A stretch of 12,342 nt of DNA from a virus (Duplodnaviria > Heunggongvirae > Uroviricota > Caudoviricetes): IMG/VR virus record IMGVR_UViG_2529293172_000014. One strand, 5' to 3'. Of the stretch, positions 1 to 10,973 are shown in pieces. Below the pieces are notes generated by a model. It was not told where the DNA came from, made no database searches, and was given only the letters and a program-made list of their open reading frames with translations. The translations under genes and the position numbers were made by a program. How positions within the stretch are numbered: the stretch's first letter is position 1; each line of letters starts with the position of its first letter.

Positions 1-46
1 CAGGTACACCAACGGGCAGTGCCGAGCCTTCCCCCAAACCAACGTT
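1..46 (-). CDS. 5' fragment of a second tail-fibre C-terminal cassette (runs off the window start)
   Basis: Minus-strand frame leaving crossover site 29..54 encodes NVGLGEGSALPVGVP, the same junction peptide that begins the 48..509 cassette. Bases 1-54 are a near-identical direct repeat of 473-526 (4 mismatches before the site's right arm diverges). Partial, no stop in window. Confidence 0.4.
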
Positions 47-54
47 TTTATGCC
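29..54. other. Invertase crossover site (hix/gix/cix-like), copy 1
   Basis: TTCCCCCAAACC-AA-CGTTTTTATGCC: 12+2+12 layout with imperfect dyad AAACC/GGTTT around a central AA, closely resembling the Hin site TTCTTGAAAACC-AA-GGTTTTTGATAA as I recall it. Overlaps the TAA stop (48-50) of cassette 48..509. Confidence 0.65.
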
Positions 55-509
55 GCCCTTACGATATAATTAAAGGCAATATTACGAGGACGGTTTTCAT
101 TAGCTGTTGGCACGACACGAGAGGCGTCGAATCCAAGGTCATCGGTTTTGCCTATAGCAGTTGTGTTATTCGGCATTCTCGCAGATCGTGTTCCTGCATC
201 ATAAAAAGCCCCTCTGATTGCATCAAAAGACATGCCAATCCCGCCATCTGCGAACCCCTCAATATTTCTTATTGCATCCCCCTGTGAAGATAATAATTGT
301 CGCCCGGCATCCACACCACGTCCGTCATCCCAGCCACGAATAAATTCACCGCGTAAATCCGGCAATTTATTAGTAGGGTAAGCCTTTGCCAGATTTGGGT
401 ACTTTTCAGAAGAAAATGCTGCTCCGTTACATTTCAGCCACCCCGTTGGCGGAGTGGCTGAGGGCCACGGAACAGGTACGCCAACAGGCAATGCTGAGCC
501 TTCCCCCAA
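48..509 (-). CDS. Promoterless tail-fibre C-terminal variable cassette (receptor-binding tail-collar domain); the listed start is an internal Leu codon, not a true start
   Basis: Translation contains GWLKCNGAAFSSEKYPNLAKAYP...LPDLRGEFIRGWDDGRG, the phage tail-collar / tail-fibre C-terminal signature seen in Mu S, P1 S and P2 H-type fibres. The frame is open through crossover site 501..526 (TTG at 509, TAA just upstream at 519-521), as expected for a segment expressed only when fused to a constant 5' gene part by inversion. Confidence 0.75.
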   Translation of the reverse strand: MGEGSALPVGVPVPWPSATPPTGWLKCNGAAFSSEKYPNLAKAYPTNKLPDLRGEFIRGWDDGRGVDAGRQLLSSQGDAIRNIEGFADGGIGMSFDAIRGAFYDAGTRSARMPNNTTAIGKTDDLGFDASRVVPTANENRPRNIAFNYIVRAA

Positions 510-526
510 ACCAACGTTTTAGTCTT
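501..526. other. Invertase crossover site (hix/gix/cix-like), copy 2, adjacent to the invertase gene
   Basis: TTCCCCCAAACC-AA-CGTTTTAGTCTT; left arm and centre identical to copy 1, same orientation (direct repeat, offset 472 bp). Sits 55 bp upstream of the invertase ATG, as gixR does relative to gin in Mu. Confidence 0.65.
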
Positions 527-580
527 AATCCCTACCTATACCAACGATGTATTTTTAACTAAACAAAGAGGTTGTTTTTC

Positions 581-1153
581 ATGCAAATTGGCTACATTCG
601 TGTGTCAACAAATGACCAAAACACAGATTTACAAAGAAATGCACTGAACTGCGCAGGATGTGAACTGATTTTTGAAGATAAAATAAGCGGAACAAAGTCA
701 GCCAGACCAGGCTTGAAAAAGCTGCTCAGAACGTTATCAGAAGGAGATACGCTGGTTGTCTGGAAGCTGGATAGGCTTGGCAGAAGTATGAAACACCTTA
801 TCACGCTTATAGAGGAGTTGCGGGAAAAAGGTGTTAATTTCCGTAGTCTGACAGACAGTATTGACACATCAACACCCATGGGGCGTTTCTTTTTTCATGT
901 CATGGGTGCTTTAGCAGAAATGGAACGTGAATTAATTGTTGAGAGAACACTGGCCGGACTGGCAGCTGCACGCGAACAGGGACGCATTGGCGGACGTCGC
1001 CCGAAGTTGACAAAAGAACAACATGAGCAAATAGCGAGGTTGATCGAAAATGGCTACAGCAGGAAACAGTTGGCAATTATTTACGATATCGGTGTATCGA
1101 CGATTTATCGTTATCATCCTGTAGAGAAGCGCCAAACTCAATCTGAGCTGTAA
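581..1153 (+). CDS. cin: Serine DNA invertase, Cin/Gin/Hin/Pin/Min family
   Basis: MQIGYIRVSTNDQNTDLQRNAL... with the catalytic Ser in GYIRVST, conserved VVWKLDRLGRS and MGRFFFHVMGALAEMERELI blocks, and a C-terminal HTH (GYSRKQLAIIYDIGVSTIYRY). ATG at 581 is preceded by AAAGAGG; the TTG at 572 in the ORF track is a less likely start. Symbol cin is chosen from the P1-like context; the gene could equally be a Min-type allele. Confidence 0.9.
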   Translation: MQIGYIRVSTNDQNTDLQRNALNCAGCELIFEDKISGTKSARPGLKKLLRTLSEGDTLVVWKLDRLGRSMKHLITLIEELREKGVNFRSLTDSIDTSTPMGRFFFHVMGALAEMERELIVERTLAGLAAAREQGRIGGRRPKLTKEQHEQIARLIENGYSRKQLAIIYDIGVSTIYRYHPVEKRQTQSEL

Positions 1154-1588
1154 TTCTAATGCCGCGTCGGTGTAATTTATCTTGATAGAATAGGTACATT
1201 TATCGCGCGGCACATCAATTCGATGTATCTAGCGCCTGCTGACCGCTAATGAAAACTGTTCTCGAAATGTTGTCCCTAGTCCGAGACTAGGGTATCACCT
1301 CTGGAAAGCATACGCAGAACCTTTTTTAACCCAGGGTGCCCAGCCTTTTTGCTGCTCGCCTTATTCGCAAAAATTAGCTCACATCCTGCGCTTTCAAGTG
1401 CTTTTCACTGCATAGCTGTGTTTTGTTCATTTGTCTATATGCGTACATAGCCTATTAGCATATTTTCTGCCCACTATCGTTATTTATTGCAAGCTACAGG
1501 TTTTAATTAACAAAACCAGTGTGTGTGGAAATCACAAAGTGCATACCGTTCTCAAATGTTGTTCAACTTACTGTTGTATAGGTAAAAA

Positions 1589-1852
1589 ATGACATTTTAT
1601 GTACATATCGTGATGTTATCCCTTCTTGGTGGGGTGTATTCGTATTTGAGTGGGCTATGTGAAAACCGTTACGAGTCTTCATGCAAGAAATTGCTGGCCG
1701 AATGTATTTCCGCCGTACTTGCTGGCTTTATTGGCATGTATCTCGCGGAATATAAGGACATGAATGAAAGCCTTCAGAGCTGCATGGTTCTTATTTTCAG
1801 CGCCAATAGCAGGCTTATTATTGAAGGTTCCAAAAGTCGGTTGAATAGGTAA
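1589..1852 (+). CDS. Hypothetical small membrane protein (two hydrophobic segments)
   Basis: 87-aa ORF with hydrophobic stretches VHIVMLSLLGGVYSYLSGL and ISAVLAGFIGMYLA. No convincing Shine-Dalgarno sequence; lies in an AT-rich intergenic region ahead of the holin gene. Could be a lysis-associated membrane peptide or a spurious ORF. Confidence 0.3.
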   Translation: MTFYVHIVMLSLLGGVYSYLSGLCENRYESSCKKLLAECISAVLAGFIGMYLAEYKDMNESLQSCMVLIFSANSRLIIEGSKSRLNR

Positions 1853-5580: not shown

Positions 5581-8568
5581 ATGAGCTTAAGCGATCAGGT
5601 GGTAATGGCCACCAGCATAGAAACGCTGATCGAGCTGCTAAAGAACCTGCCCGGTTATGGGCGGGTTTCGTATGTGGTGACAGCGAAGGGAGACGAGGTA
5701 AAAACAGCGTTTGATATCGTCGATGCCTCAGCTCTTTTGGTATCCAATACTCTGGATGGGAAAATTAATCCTGACTATCCCCAGGAACTTCAGCCGCGCG
5801 ACCGGACCCGCGCATCCAGCCTTCTTCAGGTTAACCAGATATCCAAAGATTTGCGGCCTGCTCAGCTTACTGATTCCGGTTTATCCAGCCATGGTGCGCC
5901 GATAATTGGTGAGGACAATGCCGTTGAGTCAGGTAATGGACGGACCATGGGGATCATCAAAGCCTATCAGGACGGCAATGCGGATCGGTATCGTGAGTAC
6001 CTGATTGATCATGCGACCGAATTCGGCATACGACCTGAAAAGGTTGAATCAATGACGGCTCCGGTACTGGTGCGCCGCCGGTTAACCAAGGTTGACCGCG
6101 TTCAGTTTGCCAAGGACTCAAATATTTCTGATCTTCAGGAAATGGCAGCCAGTGAAAAGGCTTTTGTTGATGCCGACAGCATAACACCGGCGATGATGGC
6201 GCTTTTTAACCCGTCAGAAAGCGGAGATCTGCTTAGCCGCAGTAATGACGCGTTTATTCGCGGATTTATGACGCAAGTTGGTGCCACACAGGCGGCTGGC
6301 CTTGTAACTGAAGATGGGCGACCAACACGGCAACTTGTAGACCGTATACAAAACGCGATCTTTGCCAAGGCATATAAGGATGCGCGCCTGGTAAGGATGG
6401 TTGCAGAAGAACCTGATCCGGACATGCGTAATGTTCTGACGGCGCTTAATGCGGCAGCCAATGATTTTGTCCAGATGCAGGCTTTATCAGGAGAAGCGCA
6501 CAAGCAGGCTGTGACAACTATCGTTGATGGTATTGAAACAGCGGATAGCCTCGATAAAAAGGCGCTGGCGGCATTGAAAGATGCGGTAGACCTGGTAAGG
6601 CAATCGAAGGAGTCAGGCCAACATATTAACGATGTTATTGCTCAGGGGGATATGTTCAGCGAAACGGCCCCGGAAGTGAAAGCACTCGCGTTGTTCATCG
6701 TCGCGAATAACCGTAGCGCGAAGCGTATGGCCTCCGCCTTTAAGTTGATGGCTCAACGTATCAATGATGAGTTACAGCACCAGGGCCAGGCGCTGGGGGA
6801 TATGTTTGGCGGTGGTGATGTGTCGTTACAGGATATCCTTCGCCAGGTGTCTCAGGAACTGGAAAACGAAGGCATGCAAGGGATATCCGGCGGTCTTTTC
6901 GAGTCCGTTTCCGGCGGTAGTTACAATGGTGTTGCTCCATATACCAGTTTGCTATTACATCGGGCATCCGGCATCAAAGACATTATTCATCTGATCAGGC
7001 TGCTTTCCCGTACAGATCCCCAGGATGAACAGCTTGTACAAGTGCTTGCGCATTTTGTTCGAATGCCTGTTGCCGACGTGAAAAAATGGTGCCGATTATT
7101 CGGTATCAGCAATTCGTTACTTCGCGGCTTGTTAAATCACGCATCCTCCCTTGGGCGCGATGGCTTTGACGAGATAGCGCAGGCGATAAAAAACGGAGAT
7201 ATGCCACCAGCTATTGACTGGTTTTCCATTCGCCCAACCAGGGTGAAAGCATTCCTTAGCGCGGCGCATTCGGCATCACCATTGGCAGAAATGGTTCAGA
7301 GGTTGTCGCTCATATTCACAGACCATACCGCGTTGGGTGATCTGACTCTGGACGAGATGAAAGAAGCCTCCATTCAGTGGGCCGATCAACAAAATGAGGT
7401 TAACTCTGACTTCTTGCCAGCATTCAGGAAGGCCGTTAGTAAAGCTGATGATGCCCGTGGAATTCTGAGGGCATTTAAGGCATTGCAAAGTCAGGTTAAT
7501 AAACATGTCGGTGATATCGATGGGGTAACGGCGGAAGGCAGGGATATCCTTAAAGAGCACGGCATAACGCCAGAGTTTATTGATGAGATCAGGACTGATA
7601 TGCAGCGTGAGGTCGTATCGTCCCTGCAAATCGTAGCCAGAGCGTTGGCGGATGCTAATCCGAAGAGTGCGGCCATTGTTAACCGTGTTATTGGTGATAT
7701 TGAAGCATCGGAGGGCATGGGGGCGCTGAAACTCTTCCTTTCGCGAGCGTTTAATCCTAACGGCAATATTCTCCCCGGCATTATTGGTGAGGCTAAAAAG
7801 TATGTCAGCGAAGAAGAACTTGAGCATCTTGACCAACTACTTAAGCGATTCTCATATAACCCGCAGACACGCTGGCAAATGAATCAGCAAAGTATGGGTT
7901 CGGTCCACGAGAAAGTGTTATCTGCCATGAACAGTGCGATCGCCAACTCATCCGTATCTGAAGAAAAAGCTCTTGAGTGGGCCGACTCTTTTATCACGGA
8001 AGAAGTGGAAGAAGCCCGCGCTGGACAGAATGGTGGGATAGACCTGCGCAAGGAACTTGCTGATATTTATCGCCTGACCGGCGGTAAAATTTCGACCTTA
8101 TCAAAGGTGGTTCACCACCAGGGAAGGGCATATGCAAATATTAATGGTGTTGTTGCTGTCAATTTGAACGATGAAAATGCAAGTGCACTGTGGCACGAGC
8201 TGGGTCATCATCTTGAGTACAGTAACCTTGGTTTGTTAGAGAAAGCCCGGTCATTCCTGAAGGCCAATGTTGAAGGGGATAAGCCATCTTTCGTTAATAT
8301 CGGTGGGCGTGGCAAGCCTGAATGGTGCTTCAGATCTCGATTGAGTAATATTTATATGGCGAAGGTATACCCGCCAGCCTCAGTAAGTAACACCGGGAAA
8401 ATTCGGCAGAAATCACCGACTATTTCCAAAACGTCAGCAACGGAAGTATTCTCTATGGCTCTTCAGTTGTATCATGACAAAGAGGCCGCTGCCGCATCAC
8501 TGATGAATGGTGACGGATTGCTGGAACTGTTATTAGGTGTGGCAAAGGAGCTAAATAATGCAGATTAA
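5581..8568 (+). CDS. ddrB: DdrB-like large Dar-operon protein; carries an HEXXH motif near the C-terminus
   Basis: 995 aa, uninterrupted ORF in operon with the preceding genes. WHELGHHLEYS at codons 871-877 (nt 8191-8211). Size and position match recalled P1 DdrB. Confidence 0.6.
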   Translation: MSLSDQVVMATSIETLIELLKNLPGYGRVSYVVTAKGDEVKTAFDIVDASALLVSNTLDGKINPDYPQELQPRDRTRASSLLQVNQISKDLRPAQLTDSGLSSHGAPIIGEDNAVESGNGRTMGIIKAYQDGNADRYREYLIDHATEFGIRPEKVESMTAPVLVRRRLTKVDRVQFAKDSNISDLQEMAASEKAFVDADSITPAMMALFNPSESGDLLSRSNDAFIRGFMTQVGATQAAGLVTEDGRPTRQLVDRIQNAIFAKAYKDARLVRMVAEEPDPDMRNVLTALNAAANDFVQMQALSGEAHKQAVTTIVDGIETADSLDKKALAALKDAVDLVRQSKESGQHINDVIAQGDMFSETAPEVKALALFIVANNRSAKRMASAFKLMAQRINDELQHQGQALGDMFGGGDVSLQDILRQVSQELENEGMQGISGGLFESVSGGSYNGVAPYTSLLLHRASGIKDIIHLIRLLSRTDPQDEQLVQVLAHFVRMPVADVKKWCRLFGISNSLLRGLLNHASSLGRDGFDEIAQAIKNGDMPPAIDWFSIRPTRVKAFLSAAHSASPLAEMVQRLSLIFTDHTALGDLTLDEMKEASIQWADQQNEVNSDFLPAFRKAVSKADDARGILRAFKALQSQVNKHVGDIDGVTAEGRDILKEHGITPEFIDEIRTDMQREVVSSLQIVARALADANPKSAAIVNRVIGDIEASEGMGALKLFLSRAFNPNGNILPGIIGEAKKYVSEEELEHLDQLLKRFSYNPQTRWQMNQQSMGSVHEKVLSAMNSAIANSSVSEEKALEWADSFITEEVEEARAGQNGGIDLRKELADIYRLTGGKISTLSKVVHHQGRAYANINGVVAVNLNDENASALWHELGHHLEYSNLGLLEKARSFLKANVEGDKPSFVNIGGRGKPEWCFRSRLSNIYMAKVYPPASVSNTGKIRQKSPTISKTSATEVFSMALQLYHDKEAAAASLMNGDGLLELLLGVAKELNNAD

Positions 8569-8900: not shown

Positions 8901-9995
8901 TCACGAGAAACTCTTTTCTGATGTCAGCCAACAGTGCTCGTGCATATCTCTTGGTGGTTTTTCGACAAATGCCTCTTCAGCCACATCCTGCCAGGGGATT
9001 TGTTTAGCCCATTCAGTTATAGCGTTATGGTTTGCCGAGAATAACGGTATTGTATAGGCCTTCAGCCAGTCTAATGTGCTGGAGTTGTGTTTTTGAGCGT
9101 GATGTTTCGCATGGTGTTTGGCGATCACGATCGTAGGCACTACCCATTTACTACCGTCAGTCATTGTGAAGTGCATATTACGGGGAACAGATGACTTTTC
9201 CATCAACTCCCGAATCCCTGGGAATTTCCCCAAGATCAATCGGCGATATTCATCGCTATTGCGCCCACCAAACTCTTTGGCTTTGAATTCAAGATATGCT
9301 TCAGAAACGAGAGGTGAATCCTCTGTGTTTAGAGTTATCGCCGTGAAAAAACCAGCAGGATTGTTTTTACTATGGGCCAACCGGTGATGCGAATCATAAA
9401 AGTACCCTTTCTCGCGTTCCGATGGTTTCGACAGCAACAGCAGGCGCGAGTCATAATTGGTTAAATTGCCAGTTATCACTGCATGAGCGCGATCGCTGAT
9501 TTCCGCCGAGTTAATAACGATGAAAAGATCGTGCGGTCCAGTAAAACCAGCCAGAGACTCTTCGTTATTCAGACAATAGGTTATATAGACGCATCCCCAT
9601 GTTTCACTGATATGCACCAACCCTTTGTCAGGGTGTATTCTGAAATAATTGCCAAGAAAAGTGTGTTTTTGGGTAACTCGCTCCCAATAACGGAACATAT
9701 AGTCAATTATTGTTTTTCGACAATCGTTAATCGCAGGAGAAACAACCACTGTACGGGAACACGAATACAGTATTGTTTGCAGGATGCTAATCACTGCCAC
9801 AATAGAGGTTTCCCCAATACCATGTGGTGTGGTGGCAGTGATTTTGGCTCCGGTGTTCTTTATCGCGTTAATAATTTTTGCTTGATGAGGTGTTAACTCA
9901 ATATCAAGCAACTCTTTTGCTGCCAGTTCCCAATTGTCTTTATACCGTTCTATCAGTGCTAACCAGGCAGATTCATTCTGTATACGATTAATCAC
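8901..9995 (-). CDS. Hypothetical protein (364 aa); degenerate P-loop-like GIGETS segment and a His-rich HAKHHAKHHAQKH motif
   Basis: Long minus-strand ORF; GTG start at 9995 with GAGGTGG RBS; overlaps the upstream gene's stop by 8 nt. No motif I can assign with confidence. The layout (LTPHQ...GIGETS...DLFIVINSAE...ITGN) loosely recalls an ATPase domain, but the Walker lysine is absent. Confidence 0.6.
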   Translation of the reverse strand: MINRIQNESAWLALIERYKDNWELAAKELLDIELTPHQAKIINAIKNTGAKITATTPHGIGETSIVAVISILQTILYSCSRTVVVSPAINDCRKTIIDYMFRYWERVTQKHTFLGNYFRIHPDKGLVHISETWGCVYITYCLNNEESLAGFTGPHDLFIVINSAEISDRAHAVITGNLTNYDSRLLLLSKPSEREKGYFYDSHHRLAHSKNNPAGFFTAITLNTEDSPLVSEAYLEFKAKEFGGRNSDEYRRLILGKFPGIRELMEKSSVPRNMHFTMTDGSKWVVPTIVIAKHHAKHHAQKHNSSTLDWLKAYTIPLFSANHNAITEWAKQIPWQDVAEEAFVEKPPRDMHEHCWLTSEKSFS

Positions 9996-10776
9996 TTTCC
10001 ACCTCTTCCGTGGTGTTTTCTTGCAGTTCTGTTAATGCAGCACGACATAGGTTCCGGGCATTGGCTATAGCCACACTTTTGACTTCATCCGTCATCGTGC
10101 AGGTAATGTACTGATCGAGTTCTTCAGCGCGGATGATGCTTTTGCCAATCAGAAACTGTATTTGCCATAGCAGATCGGCATCCATAATCAGAATTTCTGC
10201 CGGGCCTTCAGGGCCAGCCGGGAAGGAAACATAAGACTGTTTGCCCAGGCCGACAACTCGACAACTTGCTTCAAGAATTGCGCGCTTGAGGTCTGACTTT
10301 ATAACGGAAACAGGTTGATTTTCACCAGTGATTACGCCGTTGACATGGAAAGGCATGTAGCTTGAAATACGCTCTACTTTCCACACGCCAGCAAGCGATC
10401 CTTCATGCAGCACAATGGGGGTAACCGCGAGTTTCATCTCACCATATAACTGCTGGCAGATAGCTGGATTGCTGAATACATCTAAAGGCTCACATTCAAA
10501 CAGCGGCGCAATCTGCATGAGGTCCATCATGGTCATCCCTGGGGTACGAGCAGTAATGAATTTGCGCATACCAGTATCCATTGCGCTCCAGATTGCTACA
10601 CCATGCTTTTTGCTCACTTCTTCAGTAAAGCCAAGGTGGCACATGATGGTTTTTTCGATAGCCAGATCAGAGATAGAAACCTTTTCGCCAGGTACTCCAT
10701 CATTATTGATGGTCACTTCGACACTCTGGCCATTACGTAGGCGGTATTGAATGGTTTTAGTATTTTGTGCTGTCAT
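9988..10776 (-). CDS. Hypothetical protein (about 263 aa from ATG 10776)
   Basis: Long minus-strand ORF, translationally coupled to the downstream 8901..9995 gene. Start placed at MTAQNTK (ATG 10776) because the track's extension to 10896 would overlap the small upstream ORF 10791..10973; starts at 10890/10896 cannot be excluded. No recognisable catalytic motif. Confidence 0.5.
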   Translation of the reverse strand: MTAQNTKTIQYRLRNGQSVEVTINNDGVPGEKVSISDLAIEKTIMCHLGFTEEVSKKHGVAIWSAMDTGMRKFITARTPGMTMMDLMQIAPLFECEPLDVFSNPAICQQLYGEMKLAVTPIVLHEGSLAGVWKVERISSYMPFHVNGVITGENQPVSVIKSDLKRAILEASCRVVGLGKQSYVSFPAGPEGPAEILIMDADLLWQIQFLIGKSIIRAEELDQYITCTMTDEVKSVAIANARNLCRAALTELQENTTEEVESD

Positions 10777-10790
10777 AGTCTTTTCTCTGC

Positions 10791-10973
10791 TTAAAAACTG
10801 ATGTATTGCGTCTTCAGGTGGGTTAGGAATGTTTTCCCACCAGCGAAAGCAATATCTCGTGGTGTTCTGTTCGTTAAAAACGCGTGCCATTGCCAACTTT
10901 GGCGTTTTTTAGCGAGTTCGTGCTTTTGTTGGCGTTTGGACCACCGCTTTTCTTTCAGTCGTTTTTTACTCAT
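10791..10973 (-). CDS. Possible small basic protein (60 aa), tightly packed between ssb and the next gene
   Basis: MSKKRLKEKRWSKRQQKHELAKKRQ...; starts 5 nt after the ssb stop and ends 15 nt before ATG 10776. Weak RBS. Could instead be a non-coding spacer; an 8-bp inverted repeat AAAAACGC...GCGTTTTT (10876-10883 / 10903-10910) lies inside it. Confidence 0.3.
   Translation of the reverse strand: MSKKRLKEKRWSKRQQKHELAKKRQSWQWHAFLTNRTPRDIAFAGGKTFLTHLKTQYISF

Follow-up and report, generated by a model that had tools for sequence, protein, structure and literature searches.

Features at the start of the window

The window, by which we mean the whole stretch of DNA analysed (12,342 nucleotides of the Caudoviricetes record IMGVR_UViG_2529293172_000014), opens inside a repeated sequence and continues through a tail-fibre cassette and a DNA invertase gene into a set of phage genes. 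The features at its left end are the following.

1..48, minus strand: cassette head, cut by the window edge, encoding ..NVGLGEGSALPVGVP; direct repeat of 473-520
29..54, plus strand: internal mix-type 26-bp crossover site, TTCCCCCAAACC-AA-CGTTTTTATGCC
51..518, minus strand: silent tail-fibre C-terminal cassette (cassette I), 156 codons, stop at 50-48
501..526, plus strand: invertase-proximal mix-type site, TTCCCCCAAACC-AA-CGTTTTAGTCTT, outer half fixed
581..1153, plus strand: serine DNA invertase of the Min type, 190 aa, Ser9, Pfam Resolvase and HTH_7
599..670, plus strand: sequence resembling a recombinational enhancer, in the 5' part of the invertase gene
1285..1461, minus strand: pseudogene of a P1-type cin, truncated to its first 59 codons and with two in-frame stops

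The repeat copy at 1-48, with which the window opens (CAGGTACACC...CCAACGTTTT), recurs in direct orientation at 473-520 with 44 of 48 nucleotides identical (92%) and a spacing of 472 bp. Both copies contain the 20-nt core TTCCCCCAAACCAACGTTTT, whose only two occurrences in the window, 29-48 and 501-520, are on the plus strand. By chance 0.01 matches would be expected, and two copies occurred in none of 200 dinucleotide-preserving shuffles. An assembly artefact was considered as the origin of the direct repeat and rejected, as the junction was found in more than 200 plasmid records. An earlier note, made from the window's letters, had proposed two crossover sites at 29..54 and 501..526. Their common orientation, their distance of 472 bp and their shared core stand, but the identity is limited to the first 20 nt of the 26-bp sites, the last six being TATGCC in one and AGTCTT in the other. 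These six outer bases differ because the outer half of 29-54 is the 3' end of a cassette (518..51), whereas that of 501-526 is fixed sequence on the invertase side. The note also described a common junction peptide followed by divergence at both sites. The peptide, NVGLGEGSALPVGVP, is indeed the minus-strand translation of both repeat copies; the later divergence lies beyond view for the site at 29-54, since 28 nt of its cassette are in the window.

The sites are built of imperfect 12-bp inverted half-sites around an asymmetric 2-bp core (TTCCCCCAAACC-AA-CGTTTT...), and the symmetry of the outer halves of the internal sites is weak. At 29-54 the inner half heads the cut cassette and the outer half is formed by the stop codon and the 3' end of cassette I; a 48-nt head identical to window 1-48 precedes a different cassette (B) in plasmid record L004. 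The two window sites are in direct orientation, and a working system must therefore contain at least three.

The reading frame of cassette I runs from 518 down to 51 and ends in ..RPRNIAFNYIVRAA-stop directly before the second site. It is promoterless, and it has no start of its own because in-frame stops lie directly upstream, on the invertase side. The product matched the Collar domain of Pfam (PF07484, Phage Tail Collar; E = 3e-15) and the C-terminal ends of tail-fibre PHROGs, e.g. positions 477-638 of 673 in phrog_523.

A fossil cassette 3' end (..LTANEN..RN..) was observed downstream of the invertase gene, at 1237..1272 on the plus strand. Inverted repeat I1 (81% over 36 nt) pairs it with 77-112, which belongs to the 3' end of cassette I. 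After the fossil, where the cin stub has its breakpoint, comes a perfect 8-bp palindrome, CCCTAGTC-cga-GACTAGGG.

The product of 581-1153 is a small serine recombinase with an N-terminal resolvase domain (PF00239, E = 2e-51), a C-terminal helix-turn-helix (PF02796, E = 3e-15) and an RVST motif containing Ser9. Its best solved relative is Gin of phage Mu (structures 4m6f and 3uj3, E = 4e-92), and it shares 74% amino acid identity with P1 Cin. Its exact sequence is that of UniRef Q05517_ECOLX, 'DNA-invertase', and was found on at least 1000 contigs. The gene is transcribed away from the invertible region. Within its 5' end lies a stretch, 599-670, in which 58 of 72 nucleotides agree with the annotated P1 enhancer (31678-31749 of the P1 record); the alignment is ungapped and keeps the codon register. 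A putative enhancer is thus present at this position as a sequence. A scan for promoters and terminators over window positions 1-1700 yielded nothing above shuffle expectation near the invertase gene.

The cin pseudogene at 1285-1461 is identical to the 5' end of P1 cin at 158 of 177 positions (blastn to P1) and contains a decayed second copy of the cin enhancer at 1372-1443. This stub shows that the Min module took the place of both the C-segment and the 3' part of an ancestral cin. The genes that follow are of the P1/P7 type, a lydC-like holin, lydA, lydB, hdf/darA-N, darA, ddrA, ddrB and hxr, and after hxr come two unknown ORFs, ssb and lysozyme. From this gene set we conclude that the window derives from a P1-like phage-plasmid.

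The two ORFs between hxr and ssb overlap on the minus strand (8901-9995, 364 aa; 9988-10896, 302 aa). Neither had a match in Pfam or PADLOC; they matched the function-unknown PHROGs phrog_5902 and phrog_2326, and for the first there was also a weak match among the PHROGs of large terminases (E = 4.5e-9). The corresponding position in P1 presumably carries isaA, IS1 and isaB. Some relatives have a gene for a TnpB-family RNA-guided endonuclease between ddrA and ddrB (L004, 14085-15293), which is absent from the window.

The array in near-identical plasmids

Window positions 1-1300 matched 232 plasmid records, 99 of which covered at least 80% of the query; the latter were almost all non-mobilizable E. 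coli plasmids of ~95-100 kb. Of 5426 complete E. coli genomes, 240 have plasmids that match the whole window (coverage at least 80%). The best relatives were p64EVA-6 (L001, 99.6% identical), pMCR_SCKP-LL83 (L002, 99.7%) and p779-3 (L003). Cassette I is 99.6% identical in L001-L004, L008 and L010. A copy of it in the expressed slot of L005 was considered and dropped, because the match was 74% with 48 gaps.

In L001, L002 and L003 an array of ~4.9 kb precedes the invertase gene. It begins at a long gene for a tail fibre, which encodes nine Phage_fiber_2 repeats as well as a Collar domain. Each of the three arrays contains eight copies of the site core and a ninth, more divergent copy inside the long tail-fibre gene; the internal type seen at 29-54 accounts for seven copies. 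The nine sites lie in both orientations (4+5, 7+2 and 4+5, respectively). There is one cassette per site and hence nine per array, laid out as (+)^p(-)^q beside a single constant tail-fibre gene and each about 143-168 codons long. We labelled the cassette types A to I by their variable parts, the window cassette being I. The cassettes are promoterless and encode a tail-collar domain. Each begins with the conserved inner half of a site and closes with a conserved ..RPRNIAFNYIVRAA-stop, from which the following site takes its outer half.

The constant gene ends in a site whose orientation is opposite to that of the window sites. This junction site reads TTCCCCTAAACC-AA-GGTAATCAAGAA, and the constant S gene is translated across it as ..QSVLDYLGLGEGS... 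The gene reads ..QSVLDYLGLGEGSALPVGVP.. at the junction, which places the crossover core at the TT of a Leu codon, and the protein from GLGEGS onwards consequently belongs to the exchangeable cassette. The earlier note had predicted a constant gene and inverted partner sites beyond the window start, and both are found there in plasmids 99.6-99.7% identical to the window. The window itself holds two direct sites and one complete cassette, and its own replicon would, judging by these relatives, have the same left part.

A tail-fibre assembly gene (tfa, PF02413) is present once per array, behind cassette D. D-tfa and E stand tail to tail with no site between them and form a double segment; cassettes to its left point rightwards and those to its right leftwards. 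The tfa gene lies at 6456-7067 in L001, 7966-8577 in L002, 5489-6100 in L003 and 5504-6115 in L010, and flips with the D/E segment. Of the four clean records, L002, L003 and L010 have it antisense to the fibre operon. This single, mostly antisense gene does not account for the folding of the eight tips other than that of D, a point that counts against the reading of the region as a working Min-type array.

The tail-fibre gene, counted as constant part plus fused cassette, varies from 493 to 974 codons among near-identical plasmids (L001 2641-5022, L002 3539-5020, L008 2628-5552, L010 1788-4112). As the cassettes span about 143-168 codons, the difference lies in the constant part, and it presumably results from gain or loss of Phage_fiber_2 repeats or from collapse during assembly.

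For comparison with p15B we used the coordinates of X62121 that are cross-referenced in the P1 GenBank record. Three landmarks were available, the second being a cin remnant that the record notes as the same in p15B.

p15B 6463-6533: matches the cin enhancer of P1
p15B 7147-7408: matches the cin promoter and 5' end of P1
p15B 7728-8294: matches lydA and lydB of P1

A single offset of 5858 fits all three on the window. This agreement shows the window and p15B to be collinear over a stretch that begins at the last site, includes min and reaches the lysis genes. The gene order is also that of p15B: constant S gene, array, outward invertase, cin remnant, lydC, lydA and lydB.

These comparisons bear on the simplest alternative, a two-state C-segment like that of P1 or Mu, with one of its crossover sites duplicated and with no additional cassettes. 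The window by itself, with two sites and one full cassette, would fit such a segment. A precedent also exists in the Escherichia phage SKA5 (L012, 2908-4602), in which a two-state segment beside an invertase contains a cassette 95% identical to cassette I in the variable part. The arrangement there is likewise a leftward cassette followed by an invertase transcribed away. SKA5 has two cassettes, each followed by its own tfa, on a backbone unrelated to the P1-like plasmids, and we take its segment to be like the e14 Pin/P-segment. In the window, by contrast with a two-state segment, the second site heads a further cassette directly with no assembly gene between, which is an array-type junction, and the collinear p15B is the type multi-site system. 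The earlier note had named a single further site with no additional cassettes as the case that would speak against it. We looked for this case in the relatives and found the contrary, every near-identical replicon examined having 7-9 or more sites and cassettes. A duplicated site in a two-state segment is thus highly improbable. We conclude, with a probability of roughly 0.9, that a P1-like (IncY) phage-plasmid carries here a multiple inversion region of the Min type, and that window positions 1-526 are its invertase-proximal end. The presence of a 95% identical cassette in the unrelated phage SKA5 indicates that tips are exchanged between phage families.

Cassette orders, inversion and homologous exchange

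Four records (L001, L002, L003 and L010) were clean enough for cassettes to be ordered. L004, L005, L006 and L009 were left out of the order analysis because they contained many frameshifts and gave no clean cassette clustering. The four clean records held the same nine cassettes in four different orders, given here from the constant gene to the invertase, with + for rightward and - for leftward cassettes.

L001: +A +B +C +D / -E -F -G -H -I
L002: +A +F +B +G +H +C +E / -D -I
L003: +A +G +F +E / -D -B -H -C -I
L010: +F +G +A +E / -D -I -H -B -C

These orders have in common that every rightward cassette stands before every leftward one and that the D-tfa/E segment is intact at the turning point. 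These invariants are exactly what is expected if the sole operation is inversion between oppositely oriented sites. Enumeration of the allowed inversions gave 80,640 states (8! x 2), all of them reachable, and in this model every cassette is able to reach the expressed slot. The four recorded orders are 3-8 allowed inversions from one another. Legal states make up ~4e-4 of the ~1.9e8 signed permutations, so that four legal orders out of four cannot be put down to chance. Isomers are accordingly seen between records, L001, L002, L003 and L010 representing four different legal states. A six-site version of the same model has 240 states. The multiple-inversion system of the Min kind that the earlier note had suspected is thereby corroborated by relatives with nine sites, nine cassettes and differing cassette orders.

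The half-sites behave in the same way. Outer half-sites, being cassette tails, move with their cassettes, and the CACATAA tail of H, for example, always adjoins the head of the next cassette. The two outermost half-sites are fixed: the constant gene keeps TTCTTGATTACC and the invertase side AAGACT... The last site has the outer half AGTCTTAATCCC in every relative, regardless of the cassette that stands there.

The four excluded records have their frameshifts in C and T runs of sites and cassettes, e.g. CCTTCCCAAACC. These are probably homopolymer errors of long-read sequencing. Such frameshifts lead to fragmented 'phage tail protein' and pseudogene annotations.

By the mechanism established for Hin, Gin and Cin, invertase dimers would bind two sites, and a Fis-bound enhancer would assemble the invertasome on supercoiled DNA. 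Cleavage at the 2-bp core, rotation by 180 degrees and religation would follow. Recombination at the central AA of any two opposite sites would invert everything between them. Knowledge of the same three enzymes indicates that only inverted sites give matched cores, and direct sites such as the window pair would for this reason not be deleted; an indirect pointer in this direction is that hundreds of plasmids keep arrays rich in direct sites. Through successive overlapping inversions the cassettes would change their order, and different cassettes would come to stand next to the constant gene. A leftward cassette could be joined to it in one step, while a rightward, non-expressed cassette would need at least two. 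Expression of the late S operon would then yield a fibre with a new tip, and hence particles with different receptor-binding tips. The invertase is probably active at present; by analogy it may be Fis-dependent, and host range may change through inversion.

Inversion is not the only process to have shaped the arrays. In the relatives the cassettes are conserved over the first ~70 codons (~215 nt) and then diverge. Among the plasmids L001-L003 and L010 the cassette heads are mosaic, with PSATPP or PLETPP and with EKYPNLAKV or EMYPKLAKA. The head haplotypes are reassorted against the variable parts; for cassette B the four plasmids show three different heads. Mosaic heads cannot arise by site-specific exchange at the core, and it follows that the ~200-bp heads also undergo homologous exchange or gene conversion with one another. 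Homologous exchange could account for some of the array rearrangements as well.

Two further arrays have an altered content. That of L008 (5041-8933) holds seven cassettes, E being lost, G present twice and a new type, J, added. That of L011 (2304-8608) includes two new types, O and P, and its tfa is split by an inserted ISVsa5.

Taken further, these observations could mean that the array is a relic whose orders arose mainly by RecA-dependent recombination between the ~200-bp cassette heads and not by the invertase. The reassortment of heads, for example the three heads of cassette B, is in favour of this reading, and the loss and duplication in L008 suggest unequal homologous exchange. Against it stand an intact invertase ORF that occurs unchanged on at least 1000 contigs, the retention of the AA core and the conserved half-site at all sites, and that of the enhancer-like element. 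Inversion in p15B Min, moreover, is said to have been shown experimentally by Sandmeier et al. in 1990. Homologous exchange accounts for the mosaic heads but is unneeded for the permutations. We regard a relic array as unlikely and retain inversion by the Min-type invertase as the source of the cassette orders.

Relation to p15B Min and other inversion systems

The system resembles P1 Cin and Mu Gin in its homologous recombinase, its similar sites with an AA core and the enhancer in the 5' end of the recombinase gene. It shares with the P1 C-segment and the Mu G-segment the purpose of switching the tail-fibre C-terminus. The sites resemble cixL and cixR of P1, cixR being TTCTCTTAAACC-AA-GGTATTGGATAA (cix: TTCTCTTAAACC-AA-GGT..). 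P1, however, has two sites and two cassettes, each with a U chaperone gene, whereas here there are many sites and mostly chaperone-less collar tips. P1 cin also points towards its segment, with cixL at the 3' end of the gene, whereas the Min invertase points away from the array.

The shufflon of R64 (Rci) follows the same logic of one constant gene, alternative 3' ends and overlapping inversions, and is an analogy. It uses a tyrosine recombinase, sfx sites and the pilV adhesin as target; here a serine invertase acts on a tail fibre. Because its recombinase is a serine enzyme, the present system falls outside the R64 shufflon family with its Rci and sfx.

The closest likeness is to Min of p15B, which is likewise a serine-invertase system with 26-bp sites on a P1-related IncY replicon. 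Min is the textbook serine-invertase multiple inversion system. It was reportedly described for p15B, from E. coli 15T-, by Iida in 1990 and by Sandmeier et al. in 1990, 1991 and 1992, and the papers are said to give six sites, a region of 3.5 kb and 240 isomers. The 240 states of the six-site model agree with the last of these figures. Compared with six sites in p15B, the nine sites in 4.9 kb of the window's closest relatives amount to three more single cassettes.

Related regions have been pointed out in more recent work. Zhou et al. 2018 (PMC5786510) noted a 5-kb putative invertible C-segment in the mcr-1 phage-plasmid pMCR_SCKP-LL83, 92% of which matches p15B min with 99% identity. Another P1-like plasmid encodes an invertase of the Min type that shares 98.5% identity with p15B Min (Venturini et al. 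2019). Min has been described as a serine-recombinase shufflon that makes variable tail fibres (PMC6109161), and a crossover-site consensus that includes p15B is available (PMC4134206).

The comparison supports the view that the window's system would be p15B Min itself, and thus already known. Three indirect lines point that way: the one offset shared by the landmarks, the 99% reported for L002, and the invertase sequence, which equals Q05517_ECOLX. As a discovery it has little weight, since Min of p15B is known and the region was already noted in pMCR_SCKP-LL83. The nine-site expansion, the modular design of the half-sites and the cin stub are modest additions to known Min. Tentatively, the form with nine sites and nine cassettes, with its 80,640 isomers and single, usually antisense tfa, may be formally undescribed, and it may differ from six-site p15B in chaperone use or in added homologous head-swapping; we consider this possible but doubtful.

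Nine-cassette arrays occur in present-day P1-like phage-plasmids of E. coli and Klebsiella. This suggests that widespread carriers of resistance genes could present up to nine receptor-binding tips, which would be relevant to host range and to transduction of mcr-1 and ESBL genes. The array also leaves its mark on sequence records. It gives rise to many small 'phage tail protein' genes in annotations, and its repeats cause short-read assemblies of P1-like phage-plasmids to break here; the window starts exactly in such a repeat.
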